A stretch of DNA of 46,688 bases, taken from the NCBI GenBank assembly GCA_017609465.1, contig JAFCDX010000006.1:1-46688 (forward strand), in the 5' to 3' direction. Source of the DNA: Candidatus Woesearchaeota archaeon (GTDB lineage Archaea; Nanobdellota; Nanobdellia; SCGC-AAA011-G17; JAFCDX01). The position numbers were made by a program, and so were the translations under genes. Under the pieces are notes generated by a model, which was not told where the DNA came from, made no database searches, and saw only the letters and a list, made by a program, of their open reading frames with translations. Positions 15,147-39,400 of this stretch are shown here, piece by piece; the first letter of the stretch is position 1, and every line of letters begins with the position of its first letter.

Positions 15147-15566
15147 ATGGTAGCTAACAAAGACGAAAAAATGGCAAGAGACATAAGTTCAATAATCTGT
15201 TTCCTAAGTAGATCAGGAAATAAGGATCTGGCATCCAAAGTACTTATAGCTACCTCCGACAATGGAGGTATGAAAGAAAAAGAATTGATAAATTATTTTA
15301 AAGAGGAATACGGAACTAGCGAGAAGGAAATAAAAAGAATTACAGATTATTTCACAAAGCATGGTGTTTTAATTAAAAATCTAGAAACCAAAAGAGAAAA
15401 AGAGGTTAAAAGACCAAGACCACGTTGCACTCCTGACAATAAAATAGTAGAGGGAAGATCAAAAGAAATAATAGTTACAGAAAAATTATACATGCCAACA
15501 AAGGGATGGAAAAAAAATGCAAGTAAGTTAAAAGAATATTTATCAAATCAAAAAGGTTATGAATAA
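15147..15566 (+). CDS. Hypothetical protein, probable winged-helix
   Basis: GMKEKELINYF...SEKEIKRITDYFTKHGVLIK followed by a long wing-like segment. Confidence 0.6.
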   Translation: MVANKDEKMARDISSIICFLSRSGNKDLASKVLIATSDNGGMKEKELINYFKEEYGTSEKEIKRITDYFTKHGVLIKNLETKREKEVKRPRPRCTPDNKIVEGRSKEIIVTEKLYMPTKGWKKNASKLKEYLSNQKGYE

Positions 15567-16771: not shown

Positions 16772-16966
16772 ATGATAATACCAATAAGATGCATGAGCTG
16801 TGGAAAGCCAGTTGGACATTTATGGCAGAAGTTCAATGAATTAAAGAAATCAAAGTCTGTAAAAGAAGCTATGGATGAAGCTGGTTTAGAAAGATACTGC
16901 TGTAGGTCATTATTCTTAAGTCATGTCGATTTGATAGATATAGTTTCAAAATTCAAAAGATTTTAA
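16772..16966 (+). CDS. rpoN: RNA polymerase subunit N (Rpo10)
   Basis: MIIPIRCMSCGK...RYCCR; ATG at 16772. Confidence 0.96.
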   Translation: MIIPIRCMSCGKPVGHLWQKFNELKKSKSVKEAMDEAGLERYCCRSLFLSHVDLIDIVSKFKRF

Positions 16967-16990
16967 AAGTTTTTTTTACAAAAATATAAT

Positions 16991-18028
16991 ATGGAAATTA
17001 ATATGAATTATGGAAGTAAAGGTTTATCCAATAAAGAAATAAATAAATGGAATTATGATTCTTTTTTAGAGCTTGAAGAAAGAAAAACAAATTTGTTGAA
17101 GTATATCCAAAGTTTTCCTGATATATATAAAAAAATAAATATGAATGGAGAAGGTTTGTTAATCCCAAAGAAAATAGAAGAAAATGATATAATAAATTAT
17201 AATAATTTAGAAACTTTGGTTAAGAAATTTTCTATTATGATCTCAAGAAAAAGAAAGCATAAAAATTTAAGAGAAAAGATAATTGAAAAGAGAAATGAGA
17301 TAGAGGAATACAATCTGGGCATAGTTCTAAAACGTGCAAGCCATTATAATGTATTTTTAAACAGGTCTTTTTTTGATATATTCCAGGATGGATGTCTTGG
17401 AAGTCAAAGAGCTGTAGAAAAATTCAATTATAAAAAAGAGTATAATTTCTCAACTTTCGCGATATATTGGATAGACCAATCAATAATTAGGGGATATAAT
17501 AATCATGCTTATACCATACGTATTCCTATCCATACCATAACAAAAATTAGGAAGATGGAAAAATTAGCAAGAAAATTAGATTTGGATATAAATAATACTT
17601 ATGATCTTTATATAATTTCAAAAGAGATGAATATGAATATTAAAGAGATTCTAAAACTTAGAGAATATAACATAAAAACAAGCTCTCTTAACAAAGAGAT
17701 TACAAAGGAAGATAGTAAAATAGAATTGGGGGACATTATTGAAGATAAAAACATAAAAAACCCATTTGAAATATACGAAAGCAAAAAAACTAAGGTGGAC
17801 GTACTGAATTTATTAAAATGTTTATCTCCAAGAGAAGAGATAATAATAAAAATGAGATTTGGAATTAAATGTCTTTATTCTGAAGACCCTCCTAGAGAAT
17901 ATACTCTTGAAGAAATTGGAGATTATCTTAATGTTACAAGAGAACGTGTGAGACGAATACAATATAAAGCACTTAAAAAGCTTAGATTGAATCAAGAAAT
18001 TGAGGGAATAACATTACATCAACAGTAA
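16991..18028 (+). CDS. Sigma-70 (RpoD/SigA-like) family protein
   Basis: Region 2: YNLGIV..ASHY, DIFQDG.LG..RAVEKF, FSTFAIYWIDQSI.R, TIRIPIH; region 3: SSLN..I...LGDIIED; region 4: LSPREE.IIKMRFG, TLEEIG..LNVTRERVRRI..KALKKLR. Confidence 0.92.
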   Translation: MEINMNYGSKGLSNKEINKWNYDSFLELEERKTNLLKYIQSFPDIYKKINMNGEGLLIPKKIEENDIINYNNLETLVKKFSIMISRKRKHKNLREKIIEKRNEIEEYNLGIVLKRASHYNVFLNRSFFDIFQDGCLGSQRAVEKFNYKKEYNFSTFAIYWIDQSIIRGYNNHAYTIRIPIHTITKIRKMEKLARKLDLDINNTYDLYIISKEMNMNIKEILKLREYNIKTSSLNKEITKEDSKIELGDIIEDKNIKNPFEIYESKKTKVDVLNLLKCLSPREEIIIKMRFGIKCLYSEDPPREYTLEEIGDYLNVTRERVRRIQYKALKKLRLNQEIEGITLHQQ

Positions 18029-18059
18029 ATTATAAAAATAGAGGATAATTGATAATTCT

Positions 18060-19133
18060 ATGACAAAAGAGGCATTTAATCCATGGAGTTCTAAATCCAT
18101 AAAGAATTATGAGGCTGCATTTGATGAATTTGGATTAAAGAAAATAGATAATAAATTAAAACTAGACCATCATTTATTCAGGAGAAACATAATAATAGCT
18201 CACAGGGACTTTGACAAGGTATTTAATAGAATAAAAAACAAAAAGCCTTTCATACAGATGACCGGAATAGCTTCATCAGGAAAACTTCATTTTGGTCACA
18301 AATCAATAATAGACATGTTCACATTTTTCTCAAAATTCCAAAATTCAAGAAATTATTTTGCAATCTCTGACATAGACGCTTATTGCTCAAGAGAGAAATT
18401 CAAATCCTTTGAAGAAACAAAAGAGTATGCAATAGAAAATCTTGCTAATGTGTTGGCATTGGGCGTTAAAAAGAAATATGTTTATGTTCAGTCAAAAAAA
18501 GAAAGTAAGTATTACAGCTTTATCTTTGAATTGTCAAAGAAAATAACAAGAAAGTCCTTTGAAGCAACATACGGGCATATTGACTTGGGAAAAATACAAG
18601 CCAGTTTAATACAATACGGCGACATATTGCATCCACAATTAAAGGATTATGAAGGAAAAATGCCTTCGTTAACAGGTATTGCGCTTGATCAAGATCCTCA
18701 TGCAAAAATAACAAGGGACATTGCAAGAAAATTCAAGTTAGAATTGCCAAGTTTTATTTATTTACTTCATCAATCAGGATTAAAAGATTCTAAAATGAGT
18801 GCTTCAAAACCAGAAACAGCAATTTTCCTTGATGATTCCAATATAGAAATAAAGAAAAAGATACAACATGCATTTACTGGTGGAAGAGATACTGTAGAAG
18901 AGCAAAAAAGGCTTGGAGGAGATCCTGAAATATGCAAGATTCATGAGTTTTTATTATTTCATCATCTAAAAGACAAGTTCGTTAAGGAAATATATGACAG
19001 GTGCCGTTCCGGGAATTTATTATGCGGAGAATGTAAGCAGTTATGTACTGATTTTATAATAGATTTTCTTGAAAAACACAGGGAAAAAGTAAAGAAAAAC
19101 AGAAAAATAGCAGAGAAAATTATAAATAATTAA
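18060..19133 (+). CDS. trpS: Tryptophanyl-tRNA synthetase (archaeal type)
   Basis: FNPW, SGKLHFGH (HIGH), DQDPH, KMSAS, AFTGGR, LLCGECK. Confidence 0.95.
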   Translation: MTKEAFNPWSSKSIKNYEAAFDEFGLKKIDNKLKLDHHLFRRNIIIAHRDFDKVFNRIKNKKPFIQMTGIASSGKLHFGHKSIIDMFTFFSKFQNSRNYFAISDIDAYCSREKFKSFEETKEYAIENLANVLALGVKKKYVYVQSKKESKYYSFIFELSKKITRKSFEATYGHIDLGKIQASLIQYGDILHPQLKDYEGKMPSLTGIALDQDPHAKITRDIARKFKLELPSFIYLLHQSGLKDSKMSASKPETAIFLDDSNIEIKKKIQHAFTGGRDTVEEQKRLGGDPEICKIHEFLLFHHLKDKFVKEIYDRCRSGNLLCGECKQLCTDFIIDFLEKHREKVKKNRKIAEKIINN

Positions 19134-19187: not shown

Positions 19188-19979
19188 ATGATAGTTTCAG
19201 ACATATTTTTGAAAAAATTGAGAAGTGCATTCAATTTGAATATTTATGAAGCCAAAATATGGACAGCTTTATTGTCAAGAGGAGTGGCTTCTGCAAGTGA
19301 ATTGGCAGACATAGGAAATGTTCCAAGATCAAGAGCATATGACATTCTTGAGAGCCTTGAAAAGAAAGGTTTTGTAATAGTTAAATTGGGAAAACCAATA
19401 AAATACATAGGAATTAAGCCTGAAGAAGTATTTGAAAGAGAAAAAAAGAAAATAATGGAAAAAGCAAAGAATCAAGCAGAATCCCTGGAAAACATAAAAC
19501 AGACAAACTTATTCAAGGACCTCCAATTGCTATTCAATCAAGGCGTTGAACATATTGATGCCACAAACATATCAGGCTCATTAAAAGGACGTAACAATAT
19601 TTATGAACAAATATCATCAATGGTGAATAATTCAAAAAAAACCATTAACATAGCAACATCAGAAGAAGGCCTTATAAGAAAACATAATAAATTAAAAGAG
19701 GAAATCAAAAAAGCACACAAAAAGGGAGTTCAAATAAGAATAATCGCACCTGTAACAAATAAAAATAAAGATACTGTAAAAGAATTAAGCAAATACGCAA
19801 AGATAAAAAACCAGGATTTAAATGCAAGATTTGTAACTACAGATAAAGCAGAAGCTATTTTCATGACAAATGATGATAAAAATGTTCATGAAAGCTATGA
19901 CAATGCAATATGGATATCCTCACCTTTCTTCGTTAATACTCTTAATAATATGTTCAATGGAATGTGGGTTAAGAAATAA
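19188..19979 (+). CDS. TrmB family transcriptional regulator
   Basis: LNIYEAKIW.ALL, VPRSRAYDIL.SLEKKGF, GKPIKY; C-terminal PLD-like effector domain. Confidence 0.9.
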   Translation: MIVSDIFLKKLRSAFNLNIYEAKIWTALLSRGVASASELADIGNVPRSRAYDILESLEKKGFVIVKLGKPIKYIGIKPEEVFEREKKKIMEKAKNQAESLENIKQTNLFKDLQLLFNQGVEHIDATNISGSLKGRNNIYEQISSMVNNSKKTINIATSEEGLIRKHNKLKEEIKKAHKKGVQIRIIAPVTNKNKDTVKELSKYAKIKNQDLNARFVTTDKAEAIFMTNDDKNVHESYDNAIWISSPFFVNTLNNMFNGMWVKK

Positions 19980-24923: not shown

Positions 24924-26411
24924 ATGACATTAAAAAGCTTTTATGATAAATATAAAACAAGGGTTAAAACCGCAGCCGCTATAACTGCATTAGGTTTAGG
25001 ATTAGGATTCTCTGGAGCAAAATATTGTCCTACAGAAGTATATGCGACAGAAAAACCAAAAGAAAAAATAGAAAAAGCAAGACCTGGTTTAGTGAAGGAT
25101 TTCAACCCAAACATGTATGGAGGGGTATTGCATGACATACAAACAGACAATGATTATAGAAAAGTAAATTCTAATGTTCAATACCTTACAGATAAGAATA
25201 TTAAATTAATAGACAAAGACAAAAATGGAAAAGTTGATCATGTTTATCTTGGATTAAGAAAGGATTCTAATGCAACTGTATTGTTAAATACTCATGAGAA
25301 TCCAAACAGATTTTTTGAAGATGGAGAATATCATCTTGATGAAGGACCTTATAATGAAGCTATAAGATTATCTGCAAAAGAAGATGGAATATATAGTGTT
25401 CCTATACCAGAAAACACAAACCTTGGTAAAATATACTTGACAAATTTTGAGAAACAACCTTCAAAAGAAGATGGAAAATGGAATTTTGAATCAGTATATT
25501 TTGGAAAAGGACTCATTTTTTATCCAAATGGAAAACCGCAAATAGTGAAAGATGCTCAAAGAGATGGCAGAAAGGATATTACTAAATGTCCCTCTGCTAT
25601 CCCTCCCTTACCTCAAATAGAAAAAGAAGATGGAAAAGAAGATTCAAAAGAAAAATATCAAGTTCCAGATAAAAAAACACCTAAGAAAGAATTTGGTTGG
25701 GATGGTCTTGAAGAAAAAGTTGAAGAACAGGCTAAAAAAGAACATTATGGTGTAAAGTTGGATGACTTGGTTGATGTTTATGTTAAGTATCCAACAAGCA
25801 TTTATGGTTTAGACCATGAAAAGAATGATGTTGATTTTGAAAACAATGATTCACTTACTATAATACCATATACTAAAGTTAGATTTGTACCAAAAGAAGA
25901 TGATGTAAATATATATGTTGTAAAACATTCAAATGAAGGAGAAATTATTGCAAAAGGAAAAGAAAAGCCAAGAAAAAGCAAGTTTGACGGAAGAAAAATT
26001 GCAGTTGGTGGACCTTTCAATAAATTGGGTGAAGAAACCTTGATTGATAAATTAGAAAGTGATGATATAGTAAGATTTGGATATGATGGAATTAATGTAT
26101 TTGATTATTTCCCAAAATTGACAACTAAAAAAACAAAGAATGGATTCAATGTTCCTGAATTAACATGGGATTATGATGTTGACAAATCAGGAATTGTTTC
26201 AGATGTATATGATATTATAGTTGAGCATGAAGGGAAAAAATATAAGATAACATTTGATATAAGCAATGATCCAGAAGCTATATTCACAACAGGTGCAGTG
26301 GTAGGTAGTGCAGGAGCAAGTGCTTACTTTAACAGCCTTCCGGATAATGGACATGGATCAAAAGTAAATATTCCTGGAAAAAACGGAGGAGACCAAATAG
26401 CTCCAAACTAA
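24924..26411 (+). CDS. Secreted/membrane-anchored hypothetical protein
   Basis: N-terminal hydrophobic segment TAAAITALGLGLGFSGA; DKDKNG Ca-loop-like motif; beta-rich. Confidence 0.75.
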   Translation: MTLKSFYDKYKTRVKTAAAITALGLGLGFSGAKYCPTEVYATEKPKEKIEKARPGLVKDFNPNMYGGVLHDIQTDNDYRKVNSNVQYLTDKNIKLIDKDKNGKVDHVYLGLRKDSNATVLLNTHENPNRFFEDGEYHLDEGPYNEAIRLSAKEDGIYSVPIPENTNLGKIYLTNFEKQPSKEDGKWNFESVYFGKGLIFYPNGKPQIVKDAQRDGRKDITKCPSAIPPLPQIEKEDGKEDSKEKYQVPDKKTPKKEFGWDGLEEKVEEQAKKEHYGVKLDDLVDVYVKYPTSIYGLDHEKNDVDFENNDSLTIIPYTKVRFVPKEDDVNIYVVKHSNEGEIIAKGKEKPRKSKFDGRKIAVGGPFNKLGEETLIDKLESDDIVRFGYDGINVFDYFPKLTTKKTKNGFNVPELTWDYDVDKSGIVSDVYDIIVEHEGKKYKITFDISNDPEAIFTTGAVVGSAGASAYFNSLPDNGHGSKVNIPGKNGGDQIAPN

Positions 26412-26412
26412 A

Positions 26413-28140
26413 ATGAAATTTTTAAAACACTTTTTAATGTTGATTGTAGTTTTGGCTAGTGTGCTTGCTGTAACTTACACAGACACTGTAATATTCACAA
26501 ACAATAACAATGAAGAACTGGATGTTGGTTTATTCAATTGTGGTTCAGACACATCATGTGAAAACCCTGATTTGGTTGATGATTATTTCAAGACTATTCA
26601 GGCTGATGAATACACCTTTGAAAGAGAAACATCCGAATACTATGCGGAATTCTTCTTTAAGGAAGGATATGCTCCAAAGGCATATTTAGTTCCTGTTAAT
26701 TATCAGGGAACAGATTATGTTACTTTTAACAAGTTTGAAAACTGTGATGCAGATATATTAAATGCGGACATTAATGAAATAAGTGTTACAGAAGGGGAAA
26801 ACGTTGTTATAAATGTTGAAGTTGAAAGCGCATTTACAAGAGATGAAACAAACCCTATATTGTATGAGCCAAGCGAATATGAAGACTGGTATGATGCAGA
26901 CACAGAAGTAAGATTAATTGTATTGGATTCAGAAAACAATACTGTATATGAAGATGTTGAATTAAGAAACATTTACAGGGATGAAACCGAAAACGTTGAA
27001 TTTATATTAAACACTTCTGAATTGACAGGAGATTATAATATTGTTGTAGAAACAAATGTAATTGATGAAATATGTGAAACACAGGAAACACAGGAATCTA
27101 ATTTTGACTTGACAGTAAATCCATTGCCTCAGGATTTGGAAGCGCCTATAGCAAATTTCACTTATGAATTTGTTGATTATTCAAATGTATCATTTGATGC
27201 TTCAGAGTCATTTGATATTGATGGTGATATAGTTTCATATGAATGGGACTTTGGCGATGGGGAAACAGGCGTTGGAGAAACAATTAATCATGTATTTGGA
27301 GAAGGAACTTACAATGTTACTTTAACAGTTACAGACAATGATACTTTAACAGACAGTATGACAAGAGAAATTACAATAACAATTGAAGATGAAAATATTG
27401 TACCTTCTGTTGAAATAGTTGCAAACCCGGAAGAAGGAGAAGCACCATTGACAGTAAACTTTTCAGCAATAGTTGAAGGGGATTCACCCATAGAATATGA
27501 ATGGGATTTTGATGAAAATGGGATTGTTGATAGCAATGAAGAAGAACCATCATACGAGTTTGAAGAAAATGGAACTTACTTAGTTACATTAAAGATAACA
27601 GATGCTGATGGTGAAGAAGCAGAAGATACAATAGAAATATTGGTTGGAGAAAAACAGGAAGCTAATGAAGATAATGAGCATGAATTATTGGTTGACCAGA
27701 TATTGGTTCCAGAAGACATATACATTGGAGATGAATTTAGTGTTGATATTGAATTGAGAAACAATGGAGATTATACTGAAAAGGATCTTTTAGCAAGAGT
27801 ATATGTTGAAGAATTAGGATTATATGAAATAATAACAGGATTTGATTTGTCACCAAAAAGTTCCAAATGGAAGCAGGTAACCTTTGAGTTACCTTATGGT
27901 ATAGAAGAAGGAGATTATACTTTAAAGGTATTTTTCTTTAATGATGATGCATCTGATATTGCATACAAGACATTTGATGTTAACTTAAGAGAAGAAATTA
28001 TAGTGGAATCTGTTGAAAACACTACCGAAAAGGAACAAATAGATTGGTTAGGTATATTGGAAATTATATTCTTAGGACTATTGATACTTGCTTTTTTAAT
28101 CGGAATAGCTGTATTGATTTACAATTTATTTAACAAGTAA
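26413..28140 (+). CDS. PKD-domain cell-surface protein with CARDB-like domains
   Basis: Signal peptide; two PKD repeats (FDASES.D.DG.IVSYEWDFGDG; APLTVNFSA...YEWDFD.NG); C-terminal TM. Confidence 0.88.
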   Translation: MKFLKHFLMLIVVLASVLAVTYTDTVIFTNNNNEELDVGLFNCGSDTSCENPDLVDDYFKTIQADEYTFERETSEYYAEFFFKEGYAPKAYLVPVNYQGTDYVTFNKFENCDADILNADINEISVTEGENVVINVEVESAFTRDETNPILYEPSEYEDWYDADTEVRLIVLDSENNTVYEDVELRNIYRDETENVEFILNTSELTGDYNIVVETNVIDEICETQETQESNFDLTVNPLPQDLEAPIANFTYEFVDYSNVSFDASESFDIDGDIVSYEWDFGDGETGVGETINHVFGEGTYNVTLTVTDNDTLTDSMTREITITIEDENIVPSVEIVANPEEGEAPLTVNFSAIVEGDSPIEYEWDFDENGIVDSNEEEPSYEFEENGTYLVTLKITDADGEEAEDTIEILVGEKQEANEDNEHELLVDQILVPEDIYIGDEFSVDIELRNNGDYTEKDLLARVYVEELGLYEIITGFDLSPKSSKWKQVTFELPYGIEEGDYTLKVFFFNDDASDIAYKTFDVNLREEIIVESVENTTEKEQIDWLGILEIIFLGLLILAFLIGIAVLIYNLFNK

Positions 28141-28151
28141 TAATTTTACTA

Positions 28152-28167
28152 CCGTAAGGTTTAAATA
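28152..28167 (+). promoter_or_regulatory. Archaeal BRE-TATA promoter
   Basis: CCGTAAGGTTTAAATA upstream of 28222. Confidence 0.6.
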
Positions 28168-28221
28168 TTAGTTTATAACTTAAATATAATAACAAAGAGG
28201 TAGACTAGGGGGTTTTAAAAG

Positions 28222-29526
28222 ATGCAAAGAATACAAAAAACGCTAAGCATATTTTTAGCATTTGTAGTAGGATTAGTATTAGTTGCTAACAGTGCTTATG
28301 CATTGACTTTTGAGGAAATACAAGTTAATGACGTTGAGTATGAAGCTGGAAACTCCATAATCCATGTAGATAGAGGAGACACTGTTGACATCAGAGTAGA
28401 AATGAAAGGTGGAGCAGTTGACGAGGAAAGAGTTAGAGTGAAATCATGGATTGGTGGTTACAAATACAACGAAATTGAAGACGCAACAGAAAGATTTTCT
28501 GTATTAGCAGATACTTTATATGTCAAGAATTTGGAATTAGAAATTCCTCATGACATGGAAGCAACAGATGACTATACATTACACGTTGAAGCATACGGAC
28601 CACAAGGAGAATCCATAAAGCATGAACAGTTCACTTTGAAAGTGACACCTACAGAAGATCTTGTAGTAATACAGGATGTTATTGTAAACCCGGGTTTAAA
28701 TGTTGAAGCAGGCAAGCCATTGTTTGTAACTGTAAGAGCAGAAAACCAAGGGGAAAATAAGCAGGAAGATGTAAGGGTTAAGGTAAGCATTCCTAAATTA
28801 GGAATCTCAGCAAGAACTTACATTGACGAATTGGTGTCAGAAGAATTTTGTGATCAGTTTGACTGTGATGACGATGAAGAAACATCTGAATCTTCTGATG
28901 AATTAATGTTAAAGATTCCAGAAGATGCAAAAGAAGGCACATATGAATTAAATGTAGAAGTTGAATATGACAGATTCCATAAATCAACTAGCGAATCAAT
29001 GTTAGTCTTTGTGGAAGGCAAAGAAGTTGTAGAAGATGAAGACGAAGGAGAAGTAAAGAGAGTAATTAACGTGGATACAAAGACACAGGAAATTACTCAA
29101 GGTGAAAAAGGTGTTGTTTACAGAATAACATTGGCAAACCTTGGCGACTCAGCAGAAACATACAACTTAGAAGTAAGTGATGTCGGAACATGGGGAACTG
29201 CAAGAGTAGACCCAAGTTTAGTAACTGTACAAAAAGATTCAACTGGAGAAGCATTCGTATATGTTGCAGCAAACGAGAACGCAGTTGAAGGATTGCATGT
29301 ATTTACAGTAGAAGTGAATAAAGACGGCCAAACTGTTAAGGAAATTACTTTGACAGCAGATGTCAAAGAAGGAAAATCTGGACTTGAATTGACACAAGCA
29401 CTCTGGATAGTTTTTGGTGTTTTGGTGTTAATAGTAATAGTATTGGGAATTGTACTATTAATAAAAAAGTCTGGAGAAGAAGAAACAGAAGAGCCAAGCA
29501 TGACTGAAGGCCAAACTTACTACTAA
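28222..29526 (+). CDS. Putative S-layer/cell-surface protein with three Ig-like (CARDB-type) domains
   Basis: Signal peptide ..AYA, acidic beta-rich repeats (V.AENQG, ITLANLG), C-terminal TM; strong promoter and T-tract terminator. Confidence 0.7.
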   Translation: MQRIQKTLSIFLAFVVGLVLVANSAYALTFEEIQVNDVEYEAGNSIIHVDRGDTVDIRVEMKGGAVDEERVRVKSWIGGYKYNEIEDATERFSVLADTLYVKNLELEIPHDMEATDDYTLHVEAYGPQGESIKHEQFTLKVTPTEDLVVIQDVIVNPGLNVEAGKPLFVTVRAENQGENKQEDVRVKVSIPKLGISARTYIDELVSEEFCDQFDCDDDEETSESSDELMLKIPEDAKEGTYELNVEVEYDRFHKSTSESMLVFVEGKEVVEDEDEGEVKRVINVDTKTQEITQGEKGVVYRITLANLGDSAETYNLEVSDVGTWGTARVDPSLVTVQKDSTGEAFVYVAANENAVEGLHVFTVEVNKDGQTVKEITLTADVKEGKSGLELTQALWIVFGVLVLIVIVLGIVLLIKKSGEEETEEPSMTEGQTYY

Positions 29527-29527
29527 A

Positions 29528-29551
29528 TTTTTTTTCTTTTTTTCTTTTTTT
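29528..29551 (+). terminator. Archaeal poly-T terminator
   Basis: T8-C-T7-C-T7 directly after the stop at 29526. Confidence 0.65.
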
Positions 29552-29622
29552 AATTAAATTATTATTAATAGAAGATATTATTCCAAAATTATATAAAAGA
29601 TATTGTATTAAGAAAAACTAAA

Positions 29623-30181
29623 ATGTTAAAGAGACTATTCACATCAAAAACAAGAACAAGGATATTAGAATATCTATTTTTTCAAAAGAAAGAGACCTAT
29701 CTTAGAGAAATTGTTAGAGAACTTAGTCTTTCACCCAATGCTGTAAAAAGAGAGATAGATAATCTAATTGCTTTTGGATTAGTTAAAAAGAATAAAATAA
29801 AATTAGTTTAAATGAATCTTGTCAAATAATTAATGAATTGAGAAATATTTTTATAAAAACGATTATTTGGTTTATCCGATTAAGAAAGCCTTAAATAAGA
29901 AAGATATAAAATTTGCTTTAATTTTTGGAAGTTTTGCAAAAGGAAATTATGGTTCAGAGAGTGATATTGATTTACTTGTTATCGGAGATGTTAAACAGAA
30001 AGAAATCTTCAAATTGTTGAAACCTGTTGAAAAATTAATAAAAAGAGAAATCAGCCCTGTTGTTTGGACAGTTGAGGAATTAAAGAAAAATAAAAGCAAG
30101 GGTTTTGTTAAGGATATTGCAAAAAAAAGAAAGATAATGATTAAAGGAGGGGGAGATGAATTTCAGAGAATTATTAAATAA
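29623..30181 (+). pseudogene. wHTH-MNT (minimal nucleotidyltransferase) antitoxin, frameshifted
   Basis: LFTSKTR..IL...YLREIVREL wHTH, then IFGSFAKG....SDIDLLVIG; continuity needs frame changes near 29795 and 29860. Confidence 0.8.
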
Positions 30182-30559
30182 TAAAAAAAATAGAGAAAGT
30201 AGAGAAAGAAAAATTTGATGTTGACCTTGCTGAAAAGGATATTAGATCTGCTGAGCATAGTTTTAATTCAGAGGATTATGACTGGGCAATATCAATTGCT
30301 TATAATGCAGTTTTAAGATCTGGAAGAAATTTCATGTTTTATCTAGGTTATAGGCCTATTGGAAGAGAGCATCATAAAAATGTTTTTGAATTCTTAAGAA
30401 AAGCTGGGTTTGATAAAGAATTAACCGATTATTTTGATAATATAAGGAAAGAAAGAAATAAATTTGTTTATGGGGTTGTTGAGGGAGCTTCAAAGGAAAA
30501 TGCTGAAGAAGTAATAGAAAGCAAAAGAATTTGTTCAAAAAATTGGAACAGAAAAATGA
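30156..30559 (+). pseudogene. HEPN-domain toxin, frameshifted
   Basis: ATG 30156 with SD GGAGGGGG; A8 run at 30183-30190 shifts frame; LAEKD..SA......DYDWA...AYNA, HH, RKERNKFVY; further shift near 30520. Confidence 0.78.
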
Positions 30560-30932
30560 AAGGATTAACAAAAATACAAGGGTTTCATTGGAAGAAATTT
30601 TAGAAGTTCTTAAAGAAAATGATATTGAATTCAAGCAAAGATCATCAACAGTTAAAGATAGTATCCCTCATTTCAAAAGAAACAGAATAATAATCAAAGA
30701 CAAAAACATTAAAATATGATATATGAAAATCTTGGAAGACCTGCTGAATCTTCTAGAGATGAGGATATATGTTTCTAAATGGAAGATAAATTCTGTTAAT
30801 GGTATAAGAGAAATATCCAAAAATTATGATGAATATGTGATTCATATTAAGGATGGCCATATATTGGAAGAGATTTCTTTATGTTATGTGTAAAAAAAAA
30901 GATTTATAAATAGTTAAGTATGTTAAAATAAT

Positions 30933-33707
30933 ATGAAAAAGAGGTTATTTTTACTATTATTTTATTTAACTTTAATAGTATTAAGTGTATTTGCTGCTGA
31001 TAAAATTATCATACCTGATGGTGGGGGGGATTATCAGAATTTAACAGCTTGCTTAAATGCTTTAAATAATACAAGAGGAGATGCATGTATTTTTAATTAC
31101 ACCTCTGGAACAAACTCCACTATTTTTACTTTGCCTAAAACTTATTATAACTTAAGTAAAAGTACTTCACATGTAGATACTTCTGGTTCTATTATATTAA
31201 ATAATGTAAATAATATAACAATTGACTGTAATTTCTCTATAATAACAGGTATAGAATATTCCAATGGAAGTGGATTTTTCATTCATAATTCATCCAATAT
31301 AACTATAAAAAATTGCAACATAAAGAATTATATAATTACAGGTATTTATGTAAATGATACTAATAATATCACTATTGATAATTTTAATTTATATAATATA
31401 TCCTATAGTTCAATATATTTTGATAAAACAAATAATAGTTTCATTAGAAATATAAATGTATCTACTAATAGAAAAAGTTGGTTTGAATTATACTCGGGAC
31501 TTGGTTATGCAAATTTTTATGGTATATATTTTAAAAAATCTAATTCAAATATAGTAAATAATTTTACTTTATTGGGTCAGGGTTTTGTAGGAACAGGAAA
31601 TAATGCAGGTTCTACAGGTATCCGCCTAGAAAGTTCTACTAATAATAATTTTTCAAATGGGACCATAGATAGATTTAATTGGAATTCTGCACTTTTTTTA
31701 TATTATGATGATACTGTCAATAATACATTTATATATATTAATTTTACGCATAATAATAATATTCTTGATTTTAGTAGTGGTGGAAAACCTATGTACAATC
31801 TTATAAATAAATCAAATTTTATATGGAATAATAATATAAAAATTTGGGAATGGGGGTTTCCTCATGGATTAAATTGTTCTGAATGTATTATGGATAATAT
31901 AAGAGATGATCAAATATTGATAGGAATAAATAATACACCAAATAAAACTACTGGAGAATTTATTAACTTTAATGTCACATTCAGGGAAGTTTCATTTTTA
32001 AATAATTTAGGAGATCCTAATAATTATAATATATCTATTTATCCAGAGCCAACTAATCTACAATATCATAAATCTGGGCCTTATTTGTTTGGTAATTTTA
32101 CTGCTGAAAGACCAGGTATATATACTATCAAAATCAATATGACAGATAATAAAAGTAATGTTATATTTAGAAATAATCATATATATGTTAATACAACACC
32201 AAATACAATTACATACTATTTTGCTGCAAATAGGACCATGTTACATGGACAGCCAAATGTTATAGGACGTGGCTCTACCGATGCAATTGGGATGTTATTA
32301 ACAATACCTGAAGTAGATGGTGTTGGTTTCTGTAGCAATTGGTGGGCAGCATCCCCTGATGAAATACCCCCATCTCCATTTGGAGTATTAGTTGATTATA
32401 ATTTTAGTATGTATCATAATCAAAGTGGATCAAGTTCTACAACTATGGAATTAGGAAGATATGCTACATATACTGGAGGGGGCAATCCAGATCATGATGC
32501 AGAGGCAAGACCACTTTTTTATGGAAGAGAAAAACCAATGTGGTATAATACTACAAAGATAAGTAATTATTTAATTCCAATAGAATCACAACAAGACTGG
32601 TTCTGGTTACAATTTTTGGAAGAGGATAATTCTGCAGGTACATTAGACCCTCATGTTTTTACAGGTCCAACAAATACAAGTAGTATTAATATAACTTATT
32701 TATACACATATCCAAAAATATCAAATATAACAAATTTAAATGTTAGATTATTATCAGCAACTTTGATTAAAGATAATTCAAAAAATGCGACTATACAATT
32801 AGAAACAAATAAATATAGTTTATTAGATGGTGATACATCTACAAATATAACTATAGAAATGCCTGTTACTTCAACAACTTACAAAGCATATTATGATGGA
32901 ACTTTATGTTTAAGTGGAGGTATATGTAATTATAGTGCAATAGATAATGCAATTACATTACAAATTAATGTAGGCTCCATCCATGAAATTGGGATAGAAG
33001 AAGATATAATTTCTGTTGATACCTTTCCTAATATTGATTTTAGTATGTATCTTAATGATATAAAAGAAGTATCATGTTCAGCATCAAATACTATTGGAAT
33101 AAACAAAGTAGAATTGACAATTGGTAGTGATGTTATATGTAGAGGAACAGATTCATGTTCATCAGATTATAAAGCAAGTGATTTGGGTGTAAAAAAGATG
33201 TTTTGTACAGCAACAGATGATATAGGAAACGCTAAACAAACATTACCAATTGATATAACAGTAAGATCAACAAGAAGTTCAGATGATGGAGGTTCAGATC
33301 CGGGACCAACTACAACAATAACTGAAGATACACAAGACATAACAGTAGACAAAGGAAGAATAATAATGGTAAAAGAAGGTTATTCTATAGAAATAAATAA
33401 TATATTGGGTGATTCAATAGATTATACAATATATGACAGTGGTAAAGAAGTATTAAAAGATAATATTAAATTAAAGGATTCTAAAGATATAGATCTTGAT
33501 AATGATGGAAATAATGATATTAGATTAAGATTAAATTCCATTAAACTTAATAAAGCAGATATTACTATAGAAAGATTGGGTTCTTCTGAAGATATTATTG
33601 AAGAAGTTACAGAAGAAGAAAAATCTTTATTATGGGTGTGGATATTAGTATTTATTCTTATAATTGGTGTTGTTGGTTATTTTGTTTATGATAAGTATAA
33701 GAAATAG
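30933..33707 (+). CDS. Large surface protein with parallel beta-helix (NosD/pectin-lyase-like) repeats
   Basis: Signal peptide; NITIDCN, NITIKNCNI, GIYV..TNNITI repeats; many NxS/T sequons; Ig-like domain, DLDNDG..D domain, C-terminal TM. Confidence 0.82.
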   Translation: MKKRLFLLLFYLTLIVLSVFAADKIIIPDGGGDYQNLTACLNALNNTRGDACIFNYTSGTNSTIFTLPKTYYNLSKSTSHVDTSGSIILNNVNNITIDCNFSIITGIEYSNGSGFFIHNSSNITIKNCNIKNYIITGIYVNDTNNITIDNFNLYNISYSSIYFDKTNNSFIRNINVSTNRKSWFELYSGLGYANFYGIYFKKSNSNIVNNFTLLGQGFVGTGNNAGSTGIRLESSTNNNFSNGTIDRFNWNSALFLYYDDTVNNTFIYINFTHNNNILDFSSGGKPMYNLINKSNFIWNNNIKIWEWGFPHGLNCSECIMDNIRDDQILIGINNTPNKTTGEFINFNVTFREVSFLNNLGDPNNYNISIYPEPTNLQYHKSGPYLFGNFTAERPGIYTIKINMTDNKSNVIFRNNHIYVNTTPNTITYYFAANRTMLHGQPNVIGRGSTDAIGMLLTIPEVDGVGFCSNWWAASPDEIPPSPFGVLVDYNFSMYHNQSGSSSTTMELGRYATYTGGGNPDHDAEARPLFYGREKPMWYNTTKISNYLIPIESQQDWFWLQFLEEDNSAGTLDPHVFTGPTNTSSINITYLYTYPKISNITNLNVRLLSATLIKDNSKNATIQLETNKYSLLDGDTSTNITIEMPVTSTTYKAYYDGTLCLSGGICNYSAIDNAITLQINVGSIHEIGIEEDIISVDTFPNIDFSMYLNDIKEVSCSASNTIGINKVELTIGSDVICRGTDSCSSDYKASDLGVKKMFCTATDDIGNAKQTLPIDITVRSTRSSDDGGSDPGPTTTITEDTQDITVDKGRIIMVKEGYSIEINNILGDSIDYTIYDSGKEVLKDNIKLKDSKDIDLDNDGNNDIRLRLNSIKLNKADITIERLGSSEDIIEEVTEEEKSLLWVWILVFILIIGVVGYFVYDKYKK

Positions 33708-33889
33708 TTTCTATTTATAATAGAAAGATTTTTGGGGTAGATATTGAAATAAAATCTACAAATAAACAACTATAACAATTATTTTATATAAATTAAGTTA
33801 AAATAACTATGTTTGCAATATCTATGTTTTTATTAAAGAATATTTATATATTAATGTTTTCTCTTTAAAATGATAAAGAAGGTGAATTT

Positions 33890-36400
33890 ATGCATAGTAA
33901 CAAATATATAATAACTTTAATTGCATTAATACTAATCAGTTCTGCTTCTTCATTAGAATTAAACGCTGGAGAAAATGCTGTTTCAGTATGCCCTAGAAGC
34001 ACTCAATTATTCATAGATAATATAGTAAATGATGAATCTGTTCAAAAGGAATATACAGTTAATGCTGTTGGAGAGGCTTCTGCTTTTGCAACACCAGCAA
34101 CAAATGGTTTTATCCTTGAGCCTGGAGAGTCAAAAGCAATATATACTTATGTAACCCCTTTTTCTGACACTCTTCCTAAGCAATACAGTCTTGATGTTAA
34201 AATAAGCACAAAGGATTCTTTTGTAATCGCATCACACATAGTAAATGTAAAAGATTGTCATATATTAAATACAGCAATAGGACAGATACAAAAAGAAACT
34301 TGTCCTGGAGAAACAGCCCAATTTGAATTTAATATACAAAACAATGGGGAATATCAGGAAATTTATTCATTGTATGCAGAAGGAGAAATATCTGAAAAAA
34401 TATCATTAAGCGAAGAGGTAATAAAATTAAATCCAGGAGAGTCAAAAACAATAATAGCTTATGCTAAAGCAGATCCTGATGATGAAGGGATTTATGAATT
34501 TTCAGTAACTGCAGATTCGCAGGTAAGTAATGCAATATCAACAACAAAAGCAACTCTAAAAGTAAATCCTTGCTATGAATATGATGTTTTTGCTGAAGAG
34601 GATTTTGTTGAAATTTGCGAACATAGTAGAGAAGTAATACCCATAAGAATTGATAATAAAGGCTCTGTTGTTAATACTTTTAATTTGGGCGTTGAAGGTC
34701 CTTCATGGGCCTCTGTATCAAACAACAAAGTAACTGTAAATCCAGGTTCAAGTGCAGTTAGTGAATTAATATTAACTCCTAATTATGAGGTGGAAGATGG
34801 ATTTAACATAGAAGTTGAAGTAACTCCTGAAAAAGGAGAATTAAAAGCAAGACAAACTTTTAAGGCAATTGTAAGAAAATGCCATTCTGTTCTTGTTGAC
34901 ATACAGGCAGATGAAGACAAGATATGCAATTCAATTTCAAACAATTATAATGTACTTGTAAAAAACACAGGGGAAGTTTCAAAGCAATTTGCATTAGAAG
35001 GCATAGGTCCCTCATGGGTTACAACAGATGCACCCGCACAATTTTCATTAGATGCAGGAGAGGAAAAATCATTCATAATAAATGTAAATCCTAATTTTAA
35101 TACAAACCCTAGTGATTATGATATAACTTTAAGAGCAAAAGCATTGGATGATTCAGGAGTATCATCTGAAGACACTTTCACAATAACAACAGTGTCTAAA
35201 GAAGATTGCTACAAGCCAAAAATAATTTTAGAAAAAGACAGTATAGATGTTTATTATGATGGAAGCGCTAAATTGCCTGTTATTGTTGAAAATACAGGAA
35301 CATATGATGCTATTTATGAATTAGGCATATCCGACACTGCTTCATCATTCGTTGAATTAAATCCTTCTGTAGTTGAAATATCTCCTGGAGATTCAGAAGT
35401 TGTTTATGTTTACATTGCACCAAATGCTCAGATTGATGATGGAAGTTATCTTGCAACAATTTCAGCAAAGTTGCCTGATTCAACAATACTTGCTTCAGAA
35501 GATCTTGATATTGAAATAATAAATGTAAAACCAAAGGATACTATTCCAAGAGAAGACAAGGTTTCTTTCTGGCAAAAAATTACAGGATTTTTTGTAAGTT
35601 TATTTTCTTTTGAACCTACAAATGAAACAGAATCCGTCGAAGAGATTGAAATCATTAACGAAACCCCTGATATTGGTTTAGTTGAAGAAGAACCATTAGA
35701 AGATATAACAACGGTTGTTGAGCCTGTGGAAGAAGATATTACTGAAGAAGTTGTTGAAAAGGAACCAATAATTGAGGAAGAACCTGTAATAGAAGAAACC
35801 ATTAATGAAACAGAAGAAATTGTAGAAGAAGTCACAGAGGATGGTTCTGATGTTGAAGAAGAGATTACTGAAGAAGTTGTTGAAGAGAGTGAACCAGTAC
35901 AAAGCGGAGATGTCAAATGCCAGATAAATGGGGTTGATTCTCTTGATTTAGTAGATTCAATAAGCATAACATTAACAGAAGATGAAGATTATGAAATAAT
36001 AGTAAAAGAGCAAAAGCATAATATAAAAGTCAGTGCAATAGATGAAAATAGTGTATTCTTGATAATAACATCTGAACCACAGCAATTGCTAATAACAGAA
36101 GGAGAAACAAAAAATATTGATCTTGATAATGATGGAGGCTTTGATATGAAGATAACATTGAATGAAGCTAATAGGGACAATGCGAATTTTGTGTTTGAAA
36201 AAGTTGAAGAAGAAAATCCTGTATTCAAAACATTAGATTATTTAAAACAATATGAAAATTACATAATAGCAGGAATAATAGCAGTAATAATATTAATCAT
36301 AATAATAAAGACAAAATTTTACCAGAAGGCAATTGATTTCTTTGAAGAAGAGATAGAAGAAGAAGATATTAAAGACGAAGAAAAGAAAGACAAGGAATAA
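33890..36400 (+). CDS. Large surface protein with tandem Ig-like domains
   Basis: About five ~100-aa repeats with C...N.G...L.PGE pattern; Glu-rich linker; IDLDNDG domain; C-terminal TM. Confidence 0.8.
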   Translation: MHSNKYIITLIALILISSASSLELNAGENAVSVCPRSTQLFIDNIVNDESVQKEYTVNAVGEASAFATPATNGFILEPGESKAIYTYVTPFSDTLPKQYSLDVKISTKDSFVIASHIVNVKDCHILNTAIGQIQKETCPGETAQFEFNIQNNGEYQEIYSLYAEGEISEKISLSEEVIKLNPGESKTIIAYAKADPDDEGIYEFSVTADSQVSNAISTTKATLKVNPCYEYDVFAEEDFVEICEHSREVIPIRIDNKGSVVNTFNLGVEGPSWASVSNNKVTVNPGSSAVSELILTPNYEVEDGFNIEVEVTPEKGELKARQTFKAIVRKCHSVLVDIQADEDKICNSISNNYNVLVKNTGEVSKQFALEGIGPSWVTTDAPAQFSLDAGEEKSFIINVNPNFNTNPSDYDITLRAKALDDSGVSSEDTFTITTVSKEDCYKPKIILEKDSIDVYYDGSAKLPVIVENTGTYDAIYELGISDTASSFVELNPSVVEISPGDSEVVYVYIAPNAQIDDGSYLATISAKLPDSTILASEDLDIEIINVKPKDTIPREDKVSFWQKITGFFVSLFSFEPTNETESVEEIEIINETPDIGLVEEEPLEDITTVVEPVEEDITEEVVEKEPIIEEEPVIEETINETEEIVEEVTEDGSDVEEEITEEVVEESEPVQSGDVKCQINGVDSLDLVDSISITLTEDEDYEIIVKEQKHNIKVSAIDENSVFLIITSEPQQLLITEGETKNIDLDNDGGFDMKITLNEANRDNANFVFEKVEEENPVFKTLDYLKQYENYIIAGIIAVIILIIIIKTKFYQKAIDFFEEEIEEEDIKDEEKKDKE

Positions 36401-36430
36401 TTTTATAAATAAATAATATCTTATAATAAC

Positions 36431-39400
36431 ATGAAAAAAGAGGCATTAAAAAGTATAACTTTTATATTTGTTTTTTCAGTAGTTTTATTATCAATTTATA
36501 TTTTGATATATCCAGGCAAGGATGATTTATCTCAAATATCTGGTAAATCTGTAAACTCTAAAGACGGTATTATTGATTCTCCTGATTTGATGTTTGGAGT
36601 TCAGCAAGATTATATTAAGCAAACTTACTTTTTGGACTTGAATGGAGATGGTTATACAACAGAATCAGACTGCGACATGATAATATATAGAACCCCAAAT
36701 CCAGATTATAAGTGTGATTTTACCCCAAATTGTAAAACAGGAGATGCAAACCTAGACGGATCAATCTTTGCAACAGATGCTTCTAAGTGTAGAAGTGTAA
36801 CATCTCATCAAAGTCTAAACTTACCACAAACTCTAAACATAAGCGTTGTTTCAAATACATCAAATATAATAACTTTAAGAGTAATGGGAAAACTTTTAGG
36901 TAATGAGAATCCTATGGCAGGAATCATGGTGGAGCCTGAAACAGGAAATAAAAACAATGTATCTTTTAATGTAGATTATAATTATACAAATGATAGTGGA
37001 ATGGTTTCATTTAAATATGTTATTAATCAATTTAATACTCAGCAAGTTCTTAATTTTACAATATATAATGGTTCTGTGATTGGAAAAACTCTTGATGGTA
37101 TGGGAACAACAAAAGAATATAGTATAGGAAATGCTCTGAATACCACATTTAACTTTAGCAAAAAATCTCCTGTTATAATGGATATAAAAAATGTTACACT
37201 TGAGCCAAATATAACAATAATGTATTACTGGGAAAATTTAACCTTTAATTGCTCTGCAACTTTTTATGATACAGAAACAAAATATAATAATATATCATGG
37301 TATTGGTACCAAGAAGACAGTGTTTTTATAAGCAATTTAACAAATGGAATGAATATGAGCAATCACACAAATGTAATAAATGGAACTTATTGGAGCCCTG
37401 TAAATCTAAGTAATGGCACAGGAACTAAAAACTATAAATTTGGGTATAATTATTCCTGCGGTATTGGTATATGGAATGGATCAAACATGTATTTTGCAAA
37501 TTCTTCTAATGTAAGCATTGATGGTGACTTAAAGATTACAAAACTCAAATATCTAGGAAATCCCAGGGCTTTTTCATTAGATATTGAGGATTATGTATTA
37601 GGAGTTAATTCCAATGACACATGGGGCAATTATCATCAATATAATGATGGTTTAAGAGATCTAATGTATATTTATGACAAGACAAATGAAACCAAGTTCT
37701 CAGTAGGATTAATACCAAGACCTTCAACTTCAGAATGGTTAAATAGCTCTAATTTAAGTAGCACAGATTATAATTTCAGATATGTTACTGCAGATTTAAA
37801 TTATGATAGATATATGTATGTTTATCTTGATGGTGATTCGCACAATACTACTGCAGGAATAGAATATGTAGCAAGTACAAGCAAGCCTAATAACTTAACT
37901 CATACCTATAATATAACAATTGCTTCTTTTAATATATTCTCAAGCATTATGGGAAGAAATGCAACTGCATGGAAATTCCCTGACTTTAATAATGGACCTT
38001 TTGGTGATAAAGTAATAAAGTCAAATGAGATATTTCCATTCAAAATTTTACTTAAGTCTCATCCAGAACCAGAACTGCATACAGTGGAAAAAGATATAAA
38101 TAACACATTAATAGTTCATGAAACTCACAAGGAATCAAGTATTCCCACATCTTTTGGATTGAATTATTTCTTAAACACAAACATATGTCCTAATGGAACA
38201 TATGTTTCATGTATAAACAAAACAGATTATGTAAATGATGTAATAAACTTAATAAATTATGCAGAAGCGCAAGAAAATATATCATATGTTGATTACGGGG
38301 AAATAGGAGAATTAAGCTCTACATATGAAAATACTGTATTGAATATACAAAACAACACTATGTTTGAAATAGTTTCTAATAGCAATTGGACTTATAGAAA
38401 AAGAATGGCTATTAATATAACAGGAATATTTACTGCTTCAAATCAATATTTGAATTTAACAACTCCTTCAGGACTCACAATAGCACAAAATATGACCACT
38501 TATACCGATACTGGTAAAGATAGAGCAGCATTAATAATAATACCAGTAGAGGATGGGAATTATACATTAATTCCAATAGATGTGCAAAGCCCTGATCCTT
38601 ATTTTGAAATAGAAAACTTAACAATATATGCAAATAATACTAAGACTACTTTCAATGGAACTGATGCAAATTCTTCTGCTTATGCAATATTCAAGATAAA
38701 ATGGACAGGGAACTCAAATGTATGGGGAGATTACAATAATACAAATATTGACTTTAATTTAACTCATGGATTTAGATTTAATCATTCCAAAGGAGATGAA
38801 TGGTGGGTTGAGCATGACATGAAAACAGGCAAATTACATATATTGGGTAATTCCAGTTCAGGCACTGAATATATAACAGCACAAATGCCATTTGTATTTT
38901 CAAAAACGGTTAATAAGATAGGTAAAAAAGAATATTATATTAATACCACAGGGATGTTCAAGAATATAAGTTCAAATCATATGAACTTAAGCATCCCCGA
39001 GGATTATCATTCTGATTGGACACTGGAAGTAACTTATGCTAATGGAACCAAAGTATCAAAAAGTTTCTATGAATCATCCTCTATTATGTTTGATGTTCCT
39101 AAAATAGAGGAAAGAAGCTCTTTGAAAATAGAGTATTATGATGGAGTAAATCCTTCTATAACTGAGTTAACACCTTCTTCTGGAAATGTTAATTTGAATG
39201 AGGATGTAATTATATCCTGCTCATGCTCTGATAATTTTAATCTATCTACAATTGAAGTTAAAGTTGATGGTAACATTGTATGCTCTGCAAGCGATAATAA
39301 ACAGGGGCTTTCATGCAGTTCAGATTATAATTTTGGAACTCTTACCTCTAATAACACATTTAATATTCTTGGAGATCACACAATAGAATGCACTGCAACA

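Follow-up and report, generated by a model that had tools for sequence, protein, structure and literature searches.

An intact, divergent sigma-70 family gene between rpoN and trpS in a Woesearchaeota genome, and its candidate roles

Sigma gene between rpoN and trpS

The window analyzed here, the whole 46.7-kb contig JAFCDX010000006.1 of a Candidatus Woesearchaeota archaeon (46,688 nucleotides [nt]; all coordinates without a contig label are positions within it), carries a gene for a sigma-70 family protein between rpoN and trpS, with spacers of 24 and 31 nt, respectively (Table 1). The database copy (P0001, 341 amino acids [aa]) begins instead at another in-frame ATG, at 17003. Three Pfam domains, all above their gathering cut-offs, correspond to sigma regions 2, 3, and 4. 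Within region 2, the 2.2 helix reads FFDIFQDGCLGSQRAVEKF and the 2.3/2.4 segment reads FSTFAIYWIDQSIIR, the two motifs of interest being DIFQDGC (aa 129–135) and FSTFAIYWIDQ (aa 153–163), and the region 4 recognition helix contains TRERVR (aa 316–321). Region 3 is a mark of sigma groups 1–3, and the region 3.2 "finger" motif LGDIIED resembles LGDFIED of Escherichia coli (HLGDFIED in the alignment). A 6-aa insertion in region 4, KCLYSE, occurs elsewhere in a single sigma among 36 other DPANN sequences and is absent from the eight aligned bacterial sigmas.

The top-scoring NCBIfam models are RpoD models (TIGR02393, 184.1 bits against a cut-off of 354, E-value 3.2e-54; NF004208, 185.3 bits against 555), with the RpoD equivalog cut-offs missed and the TIGR02393 score reaching about half of its cut-off. 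Regions 1.1 (PF03979) and 1.2 (PF00140) gave no Pfam match at an E-value of ≤0.01. The closest sequence match in the PDB is Bacillus subtilis SigA (7ckq_F; E-value 3.8e-38, spanning aa 91–333), and the top Foldseek matches of an AlphaFold2 model are SigA/RpoD chains of holoenzyme structures (E-value ~1e-15). This model, built from 48 sequences, has a mean predicted local distance difference test (pLDDT) score of 78.9 and confident sigma2, sigma3, and sigma4 domains; aa 1–13 and 50–71 fall below a pLDDT of 50 and are described as disordered, and the orphan N terminus has predicted helices at aa 14–40, at aa 43–51, and from aa 73. By a hand estimate assuming ~0.086 stops per random codon, 345 stop-free codons in DNA with a guanine-cytosine (GC) content of 26% would arise by chance with P ~1e-14.

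An exhaustive search of 1.84 billion representatives returned 55,743 relatives at an E-value of ≤0.001, none of them more than 43% identical, and a word-indexed search agreed with it on the distant relatives; the matches begin at approximately query residue 84–103 and leave the first ~90 residues uncovered. An earlier note on this DNA, made from the letters alone, had described an intact 345-aa frame with RpoD-like regions, divergent core-binding and melting motifs beside a retained TRERVR, an unrecognizable N terminus, and a location between archaeal rpoN and trpS with short spacers and a T-tract after rpoN. The list of open reading frames (ORFs), the above-cut-off Pfam matches, the presence of all quoted motifs in the frame, the exhaustive search, and the spacers and T8 tract listed here bear out this description.

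The gene resembles its host in synonymous codon usage (49th percentile of 444 genes of this genome) and in GC content at third codon positions (49.5th percentile), with an overall GC content of 25.9% vs a genome mean of 29.6%. Using column conservation computed on 47 other aligned sigmas, we found that the window protein keeps the consensus at 17 of the 22 columns conserved at ≥90%, at 25 of 37 columns at 70–90%, and at 13 of 41 columns at 50–70%, compared with 32 of 94 columns at 30–50% and 14 of 76 columns below 30%. Because retention falls so steeply with column conservation (from 77% to 18%), this is not the pattern of neutral decay. In family pairs other than the window gene, the ratio of nonsynonymous to synonymous divergence (dN/dS) was 0.29 (genomes G080 and G081; dS 0.43) and 0.43 (G034 and G150), the remaining sigma pairs being saturated; for the largest polymerase subunit, Rpo1N, it was 0.034 (G005 and G007). 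Host-like codon usage, the lack of a near relative, and the retained conserved columns together argue against a chimera, recent transfer, and neutral drift. It is thus well supported that the window holds a genuine, intact sigma-70 family gene with RpoD-like regions 2, 3, and 4 that is under selective constraint. The refuting cases named in the earlier note, a chimera and a neutral singleton of recent transfer, are mostly excluded by the same host-like codons, the absence of a near donor, and substitutions that spare conserved columns; from the singleton idea, the lone lineage survives, whereas recency and neutrality do not fit the codon usage, a nearest relative at 43% identity, and the constraint gradient.

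Four public DNA runs yielded short, low-depth contigs without differences to the window, lying in the sigma gene (17212–17481, 17583–17733, and 17771–18051) and in trpS (18216–18358). These contigs measure 151–270 bases at a depth of 2–4 and come from runs labeled hydrothermal vent metagenome, indicating low-abundance occurrence of this organism, or of a strain almost identical to it, in those samples. They fall only inside genes and bridge neither 16966/16991 nor 18028/18060, as would also be the case if the sigma gene were an assembly chimera or bacterial contamination inside an archaeal contig. We nevertheless regard such an artifact as highly improbable: spacers, strand, and codon usage are host-like, the GC content falls short of the genome mean rather than exceeding it, the gene is embedded among archaeal genes with 17 kb and 28 kb of contig to either side, and relatives assembled into one to four contigs (G005, G007, and G008) carry sigma genes too. 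A true contaminant looks otherwise, as exemplified by a 1963-bp contig of another genome (G075 C170) that scores above the RpoD cut-off. The RpoD C terminus on that contig (C170:23-736, locus L021; 362 bits, above the equivalog cut-off) groups with bacterial rows in the tree, and the contig is probably bacterial contamination of that bin.

TABLE 1 Features of the sigma locus and its surroundings (window coordinates)
Feature	Position	Strand	Remarks
ORF without annotation	15147–15566	+	139 aa; inside the Rpo3-L18e-L13-S9-rpoN cluster; overlaps the L18e start by 8 nt; no Pfam or PADLOC match
rpoN (Rpo10)	16772–16966	+	PF01194, E 2.6e-22; final gene of the rpoD(Rpo3)-L18e-L13-S9-rpoN cluster; stop codon 16964–16966
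A/T-rich TATA-like stretch TTTTAAAA	16961–16968	+	23–30 nt before the ATG; putative promoter element
T8 tract	16970–16977	+	Between the rpoN stop and the sigma start; putative terminator
Sigma-70 family gene	16991–18028	+	Intact ORF of 345 aa, ATG start
Orphan N-terminal part (aa 1–95)	16991–17275	+	No Pfam match at E ≤0.01
Region 2, Sigma70_r2 (PF04542; aa 126–169)	17366–17497	+	E 1.1e-8; 35.2 bits, gathering cut-off 24
Region 3, Sigma70_r3 (PF04539; aa 209–260)	17615–17770	+	E 1.4e-7; 32 bits, gathering cut-off 25.3
Region 3.2 finger motif LGDIIED	17726–17746	+	
Region 4 helix-turn-helix, Sigma70_r4 (PF04545; aa 274–332)	17810–17986	+	E 1.7e-15; 56.7 bits, gathering cut-off 24.1
Region 4 insertion KCLYSE	17867–17884	+	6 aa
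Region 4 recognition helix TRERVRR	17936–17956	+	
trpS (class I W/Y tRNA synthetase)	18060–19133	+	PF00579, E 2.5e-29
TrmB-family regulator	19188–19979	+	After trpS; PLD-like C-terminal domain; weak Csa3-like PADLOC matches (E 4e-5)
Run of six large same-strand ORFs	24924–39799	+	434–1122 aa; several with PKD, beta-helix, or FixG_C Ig-like domains, two without family; probably surface proteins

Upstream of the sigma gene, the order is Rpo3 (archaeal rpoD), the unannotated ORF, L18e, L13, S9, and rpoN. This ribosomal and polymerase cluster is kept in G005, G007, and G002 with nothing sigma- or trpS-like after rpoN, so the window sigma stands at a synteny break. A tblastn comparison of rpoN, S9, L13, trpS, and TrmB with 19 sigma loci of relatives likewise revealed no conserved synteny, with trpS found beside a sigma gene only in G053. 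At that locus (L006, G053 C1:37906-41574), trpS precedes the sigma gene, the reverse of the order in the window, and the G053 sigma belongs to the main DPANN clade. Clustering of 136 neighboring ORFs (≥100 aa) from sigma loci L001–L050 gave no family present in more than four loci and hence no conserved partner gene; the families found are housekeeping genes (Pth2-like, isoaspartyl methyltransferase-like, and ribosomal proteins).

The source genome (801 kb, 89% complete, 0.8% contamination) contains the window sigma in single copy and as its only full-length sigma. Elsewhere in this genome (G000 C14:33376-33519, − strand), a 203-aa frame gives a second, weak match resembling sigma region 4 (TIGR02937, 25.5 bits), and similar frames of ~200 aa occur in G005, G006, and G007. 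Among named genomes, the closest relatives of its Rpo1N (57–71% identity) are assigned to Candidatus Woesearchaeota, Candidatus Nanoarchaeia, or Nanoarchaeota; the sigma-70-class protein is encoded on a contig with archaeal marker genes on both sides, which makes it a member of the DPANN sigma-70 kind.

Promoter-reading residues and the host transcription apparatus

We aligned 37 DPANN sigmas, the window protein included, to RpoD of E. coli K-12 and numbered residues accordingly; their roles in melting, −10 and −35 recognition, and core binding are taken to be those of the E. coli residues. The window protein retains D403, Q406, W434, Q437, R441, R451, and H455 and carries E407D, N409C, L412S, M413Q, Y430F, W433Y, R436D, and T440I. 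In the melting and −10 set (Y430, W433, W434, Q437, T440, and R441), three residues are therefore kept, two aromatic positions have changed conservatively, and T440 is replaced by isoleucine. In the −35 set, R584, E585, and R588 are kept, as is R586, and Q589 is arginine; this position is glutamine in the 35 other DPANN sigmas having a residue there and in all eight bacterial sigmas. The window protein thus retains most of the family's key residues but stands apart from it at Y430 (F), W433 (Y), N409 (C), L412 (S), and Q589 (R).

Across the 37 DPANN sigmas, these positions prove nearly invariant. The aromatic and neighboring residues of the melting segment are W434 (37/37), Y430 (36/37), W433 (33/37), and Q437 (36/37), followed by R451 (30/37) and P453 (36/37). 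At the core-binding helix, D403 (as D or E) and G408 are each kept in 36 sigmas, N409 in 28, and E407 in 25, and in the −35 helix, retention ranges from 34 (E585 and R588) through 35 (R586 and Q589) to 36 (R584) of 37. As a family, DPANN sigmas therefore retain the residues that underlie −10 strand capture and −35 reading, as well as those of the core-binding helix.

Archaeal transcription initiates with TBP, TFB, and TFE. All three are encoded in the source genome, with a single TBP and a single TFB, so that a role for sigma as a substitute for a missing basal factor was ruled out. The genome encodes one largest polymerase subunit, an archaeal Rpo1N of 857 aa, and no second one. Residues 260–309 of E. 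coli beta-prime align with residues 229–278 of Rpo1N without gaps, but with only 13 of 50 positions identical and a net charge of +1 in E. coli vs −6 in Rpo1N. According to a study of the beta-prime coiled coil (PMC8321222), R275, E295, and A302 are needed for sigma 2.2 binding, and their substitution abolishes holoenzyme formation. The counterparts of these residues in Rpo1N are I244, L264, and H271. Across 26 Rpo1N proteins of the order, from genomes with and without sigma, all three residues and the greater part of the coiled coil are unchanged, and this invariance irrespective of sigma gives no sign that the clamp has adapted to it. A complex prediction for sigma aa 73–345 with Rpo1N aa 1–450, both supplied as alignments, gave a score of 0.01 and a mark of 0.32; run without controls, it has no bearing either way. 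In a related genome (G020 C8:29421-33503, locus L082), Rpo1N lies in a single 1367-aa frame with an insert of ~1.5 kb at residue ~447–449, before the catalytic NADFDGD, which looks like an intein.

In 459 upstream intergenic regions, sites resembling TTGACA-N16-18-TATAAT with no more than one mismatch per hexamer occurred in 17 regions, compared with 18.0 ± 3.6 in first-order Markov simulations, i.e., without enrichment. The hexamer TTGACA was found 7 times (10.5 expected), in contrast to TTTATA (261 vs 128.6) and TTATATA (95 vs 35.5). Among the 37 DPANN sigma genes, only one has a sigma-type promoter upstream, and TATA-like hexamers concentrate 10–49 nt before the starts. The excess of TATA-like elements without sigma-type enrichment implies that the promoters are archaeal and that a sigma regulon, if there is one, is small or relies on another motif.

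Occurrence, placement, and turnover of DPANN sigma genes

Sigma-70 genes have been reported in DPANN archaea before: Castelle et al. (2021, Front Microbiol; PMC8204110) described them as fam00359, "particularly prevalent in Woesearchaeota." In that paper, mis-binning is ruled out, anti-sigma factors are said not to have been found, and the mechanism is called unclear. Our counts agree with a wide occurrence. The window protein itself matches 24 of 61 related genomes (E-value ≤0.001). Matches to the RpoD_Cterm model occur in 115 of 240 genomes from the order (E-value ≤1e-5), including 53 of the 107 high-quality ones, and in 113 of 301 genomes of a phylum sample (E-value ≤1e-10). G439 and G440, two unpublished genomes that both match, are counted in this last figure, which drops to 111 of 299 without them. 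The presence of a sigma-70 gene in a DPANN archaeon as such is not new, and the suggestion of the earlier note that this was the best candidate for an undescribed system is overtaken by that publication and by the 115 genomes counted here.

Within the order, a single match exceeds the RpoD cut-off, namely, the probable contaminant G075 C170. Genomes carry up to six sigma matches, in some cases as tandem arrays of three or four. Such arrays lie in other genomes of the order and class at G132 C36:1586-4086, G397 C3:16375-20157, and G364 C6:9111-11698; two copies in G397 and one in G411 pass the RpoD cut-off.

The window sigma shares 20–31% identity with the 36 other DPANN sigmas and 29–36% with the bacterial RpoD rows aligned alongside, reaching 33–43% against bacterial primary or primary-like sigmas over aa ~95–335. 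A quick tree of 71 rows placed it with the DPANN rows (SH-like approximate likelihood ratio support, 87–88). A careful tree separated 36 DPANN rows from 34 bacterial-side rows (support 69/79) and placed the window sigma with the latter, its branch of 2.2 changes per site being the third-longest of the tree. Of 1000 bootstrap trees, 770 agreed with this side, 161 gave the DPANN side, and 69 left the protein unplaced; the approximately unbiased (AU) test did not reject the bacterial-side placement (p 0.84), with the constrained tree 17.5 log units above the quick tree. Membership in the DPANN sigma clade, as in the quick tree, was therefore not upheld. Since the bacterial-side rows are the best matches of our own searches, group 3 and 4 sigmas were left out, and the amino-acid make-up of the window protein is atypical, its placement is tentative, and an independent old acquisition is as likely as membership in the main DPANN clade. 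The earlier note had called for a phylogeny to separate a DPANN-specific clade from recent transfer: codon usage and the lack of a near relative argue against recent transfer, and the quick tree, but not the careful one, groups the window sigma with the DPANN rows.

DPANN sigmas have long end branches (~0.5–2.4 changes per site, compared with 0.03–0.9 for bacterial rows). Seven genomes of the same family have sigmas that are 30–36% identical to that of the window, with no orthologue among them, whereas their Rpo1N proteins are 68–74% identical. In the sister genomes G005 and G007, the Rpo1N proteins are 99% identical, but each genome's only full-length sigma shares just 34% identity with the other's and occupies a different locus. 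The DNA on either side of each sigma locus has a counterpart in the partner genome (70–94% nucleotide identity), where 0.5–1.1 kb takes the place of the 2.2–2.6 kb that includes sigma. These islets (L005, G007 C1:272921-276685; L007, G005 C2:222208-226161) are each missing at the syntenic site of the other genome. That of G007 also encodes an archaemetzincin-like HELGH protein (L005 2367–3020), and the sigma gene of G005 lies downstream of rrp42 and rpoK. Sigma genes are thus a flexible part of the genome, at least in this pair.

Candidate functions and known sigma systems

A DNA-binding regulator, a clamp binder, and an effector on a bacterial polymerase had all been put forward as hypotheses in the earlier note. 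The reading that we favor, tentatively and with somewhat less than even confidence, is that the window sigma serves the archaeon as an accessory promoter-DNA-binding regulator without forming a classical holoenzyme. Sigma-70 fragments lacking region 1.1 bind promoter DNA in the absence of core enzyme. Under this proposal, the almost canonical region 4 helix-turn-helix would bind duplex DNA, the aromatic and basic surface of region 2 would bind A/T-rich or locally opened DNA, and the protein would act as a sequence-specific factor that modulates TBP/TFB/TFE-dependent initiation at a few targets. Transcription of its gene would probably start at a TATA-type promoter of the archaeal kind, whether independently of rpoN or with polymerase reading across the T8 tract. 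That no classical bacterial-type holoenzyme would form is suggested by an archaeal Rpo1N as the sole largest subunit, the replaced docking residues, the acidic and invariant coiled coil, and the presence of TBP, TFB, and TFE, and sigma-70-type sites at the simulated level genome-wide would allow few targets at most.

Several observations weigh against a DNA-binding regulator. No sigma-type promoter signal that could mark its DNA target was found genome-wide, nor upstream of the DPANN sigma genes in more than 1 of 37 cases. The conserved melting aromatics, 2.2 helix, and LGDIIED motif serve no evident purpose in a protein that binds DNA on its own, and polymerase contact would suit them better. 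The conservation of features of use only on a polymerase, together with a sole polymerase that lacks the known docking residues, weakens both this regulator and any docking on the archaeal enzyme. Finally, the window protein differs from the consensus in five of the 22 columns with the highest conservation (K89, L412S, Y430F, W433Y, and Q589R); with a branch of 2.2 changes per site, the five changed columns mean that its function may be altered or weakened.

Docking on the archaeal polymerase is an alternative and, in our view, an unlikely one. Here, sigma would sit on the clamp coiled coil and in the cleft used by TFE and by the TFB linker and reader, and capture the non-template strand in an alternative or competing mode of initiation. 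Such a role would account for the family's retention of the 2.2 helix, the melting aromatics, and part of the 3.2 finger, all of which are features that sigma uses only on a polymerase, and it would draw on a coiled coil that is homologous in both domains and alignable without gaps, in a genome with one TBP and one TFB. However, Rpo1N has other residues at the three beta-prime positions on which sigma 2.2 binding depends, the segment is acidic, and it does not vary across the 26 genomes according to the presence of sigma. Sigma-type promoters are not enriched, and the presence of TFE leaves no gap to fill. That sigma immediately follows rpoN here and comes after rpoK in G005 might seem suggestive, but adjacency to a polymerase gene in 2 of ~37 loci is, by our estimate, at chance level.

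Fading of an old bacterial acquisition, whose role has been lost and which decays slowly in this lineage, would suit a lone lineage without an orthologue in the seven same-family genomes (30–36% identity for sigma vs 68–74% for Rpo1N), the third-longest branch of the tree, the changes at 5 of the 22 most conserved columns (including Y430F, W433Y, and Q589R), and the grouping with bacterial-side rows rather than with the 36 DPANN sigmas (770/1000 bootstraps; AU p 0.84). We consider it distinctly unlikely, as the 345-codon frame is intact in 26% GC DNA, the changes at aromatic positions are conservative, codon usage matches the genome, and the gradient of consensus retention from 77% to 18% is unlike neutral decay. 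A longer shot still is that Woesearchaeota sigmas act as effectors or decoys on the bacterial RNA polymerase of a partner, host, or competitor, redirecting or sequestering its core enzyme. Phage-encoded sigma factors do this to bacterial core enzyme. Of the readings considered, this one alone would explain at once why the interface is conserved, why the clamp does not match it, why sigma-type promoters are lacking, and why the genes turn over. In its favor, the bacterial-type 2.2 interface is kept even though the organism's own polymerase has no counterpart, region 1.1 is absent, end branches are long (~0.5–2.4 changes per site), genomes hold up to six matches and tandem arrays, genes turn over between congeneric genomes with 99% identical Rpo1N, and the nearest look-alike clusters of a language model include phage sigma factors, which we treat as a lead only. 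On the other side, the window protein has no recognizable export signal, its gene sits among housekeeping genes, phage sigmas are no closer to it than bacterial ones (≤38.6% identity) and no relative was found on a viral contig, and nothing in this analysis ties the organism to a bacterium. We also know of no route by which a sigma would be delivered into a bacterial partner, and the DPANN hosts identified to date are, to our knowledge, archaea.

What role the hundreds of DPANN sigma-70 genes play was raised as a question in 2021, and neither a functional study nor another test of it was found in the literature searched. The present results sharpen this question, because the family keeps features for polymerase use next to an archaeal clamp without the bacterial docking residues, in a genome without enrichment of sigma-type promoters, and with sigma genes that are flexible and turn over fast in one sister pair. 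New here are the near-invariant −10-melting and −35-reading residues of DPANN sigmas, the unmatched clamp, the lack of promoter enrichment, and the swappable islets. The window gene, encoding 345 aa in single copy in a 0.8-Mb genome, offers a compact test case.

Compared with known systems, the sigma domains of the window protein are like those of MzaA of the MZA anti-phage system (NCBIfam NF041931, E-value 5.2e-50; PADLOC MzaA, E-value 3.5e-30). However, the window protein lacks the long N terminus of MzaA, matches only model positions 435–658 of 683, and scores 171 bits where the cut-off is 800. We rejected a defense role on these grounds, as the match is confined to the sigma domain and the neighbors are rpoN and trpS; other Mza proteins were not searched for. 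Phage sigma-70 factors (PHROG 351, matched at an E-value of 2.2e-46) share a compact build without region 1.1, but the window protein is at most 38.6% identical to phage records, no better than to bacteria, and its gene has chromosomal housekeeping neighbors. A viral origin was likewise rejected on this low identity and the lack of a relative on viral contigs.

Bacterial group 1 and 2 sigmas (RpoD, SigA, and RpoS) resemble the window protein in domain order, in fold, and in the majority of the residues that read promoters in regions 2.3, 2.4, 3.0, and 4.2. The window protein differs from them in having no region 1.1, no Pfam region 1.2, and no non-conserved insert, in nine substitutions (N409C, L412S, M413Q, Y430F, W433Y, R436D, T440I, E458T, and Q589R), and in its 6-aa insertion in region 4, and its genome encodes no bacterial core enzyme. 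The closest parallel is with the published DPANN sigma-70 genes (fam00359), with which it shares an archaeal contig, a Woesearchaeota-type genome, the lack of an anti-sigma partner near the gene, and the presence of TBP, TFB, and TFE in the same genome as sigma. The window copy differs from these in its low identity (≤43% to anything and 20–31% to the 36 other DPANN sigmas) and in its position outside their clade in the careful tree. It is thus well supported that the window gene is one more case of the published DPANN sigma-70 genes, represented here by a lone and unusually divergent lineage.

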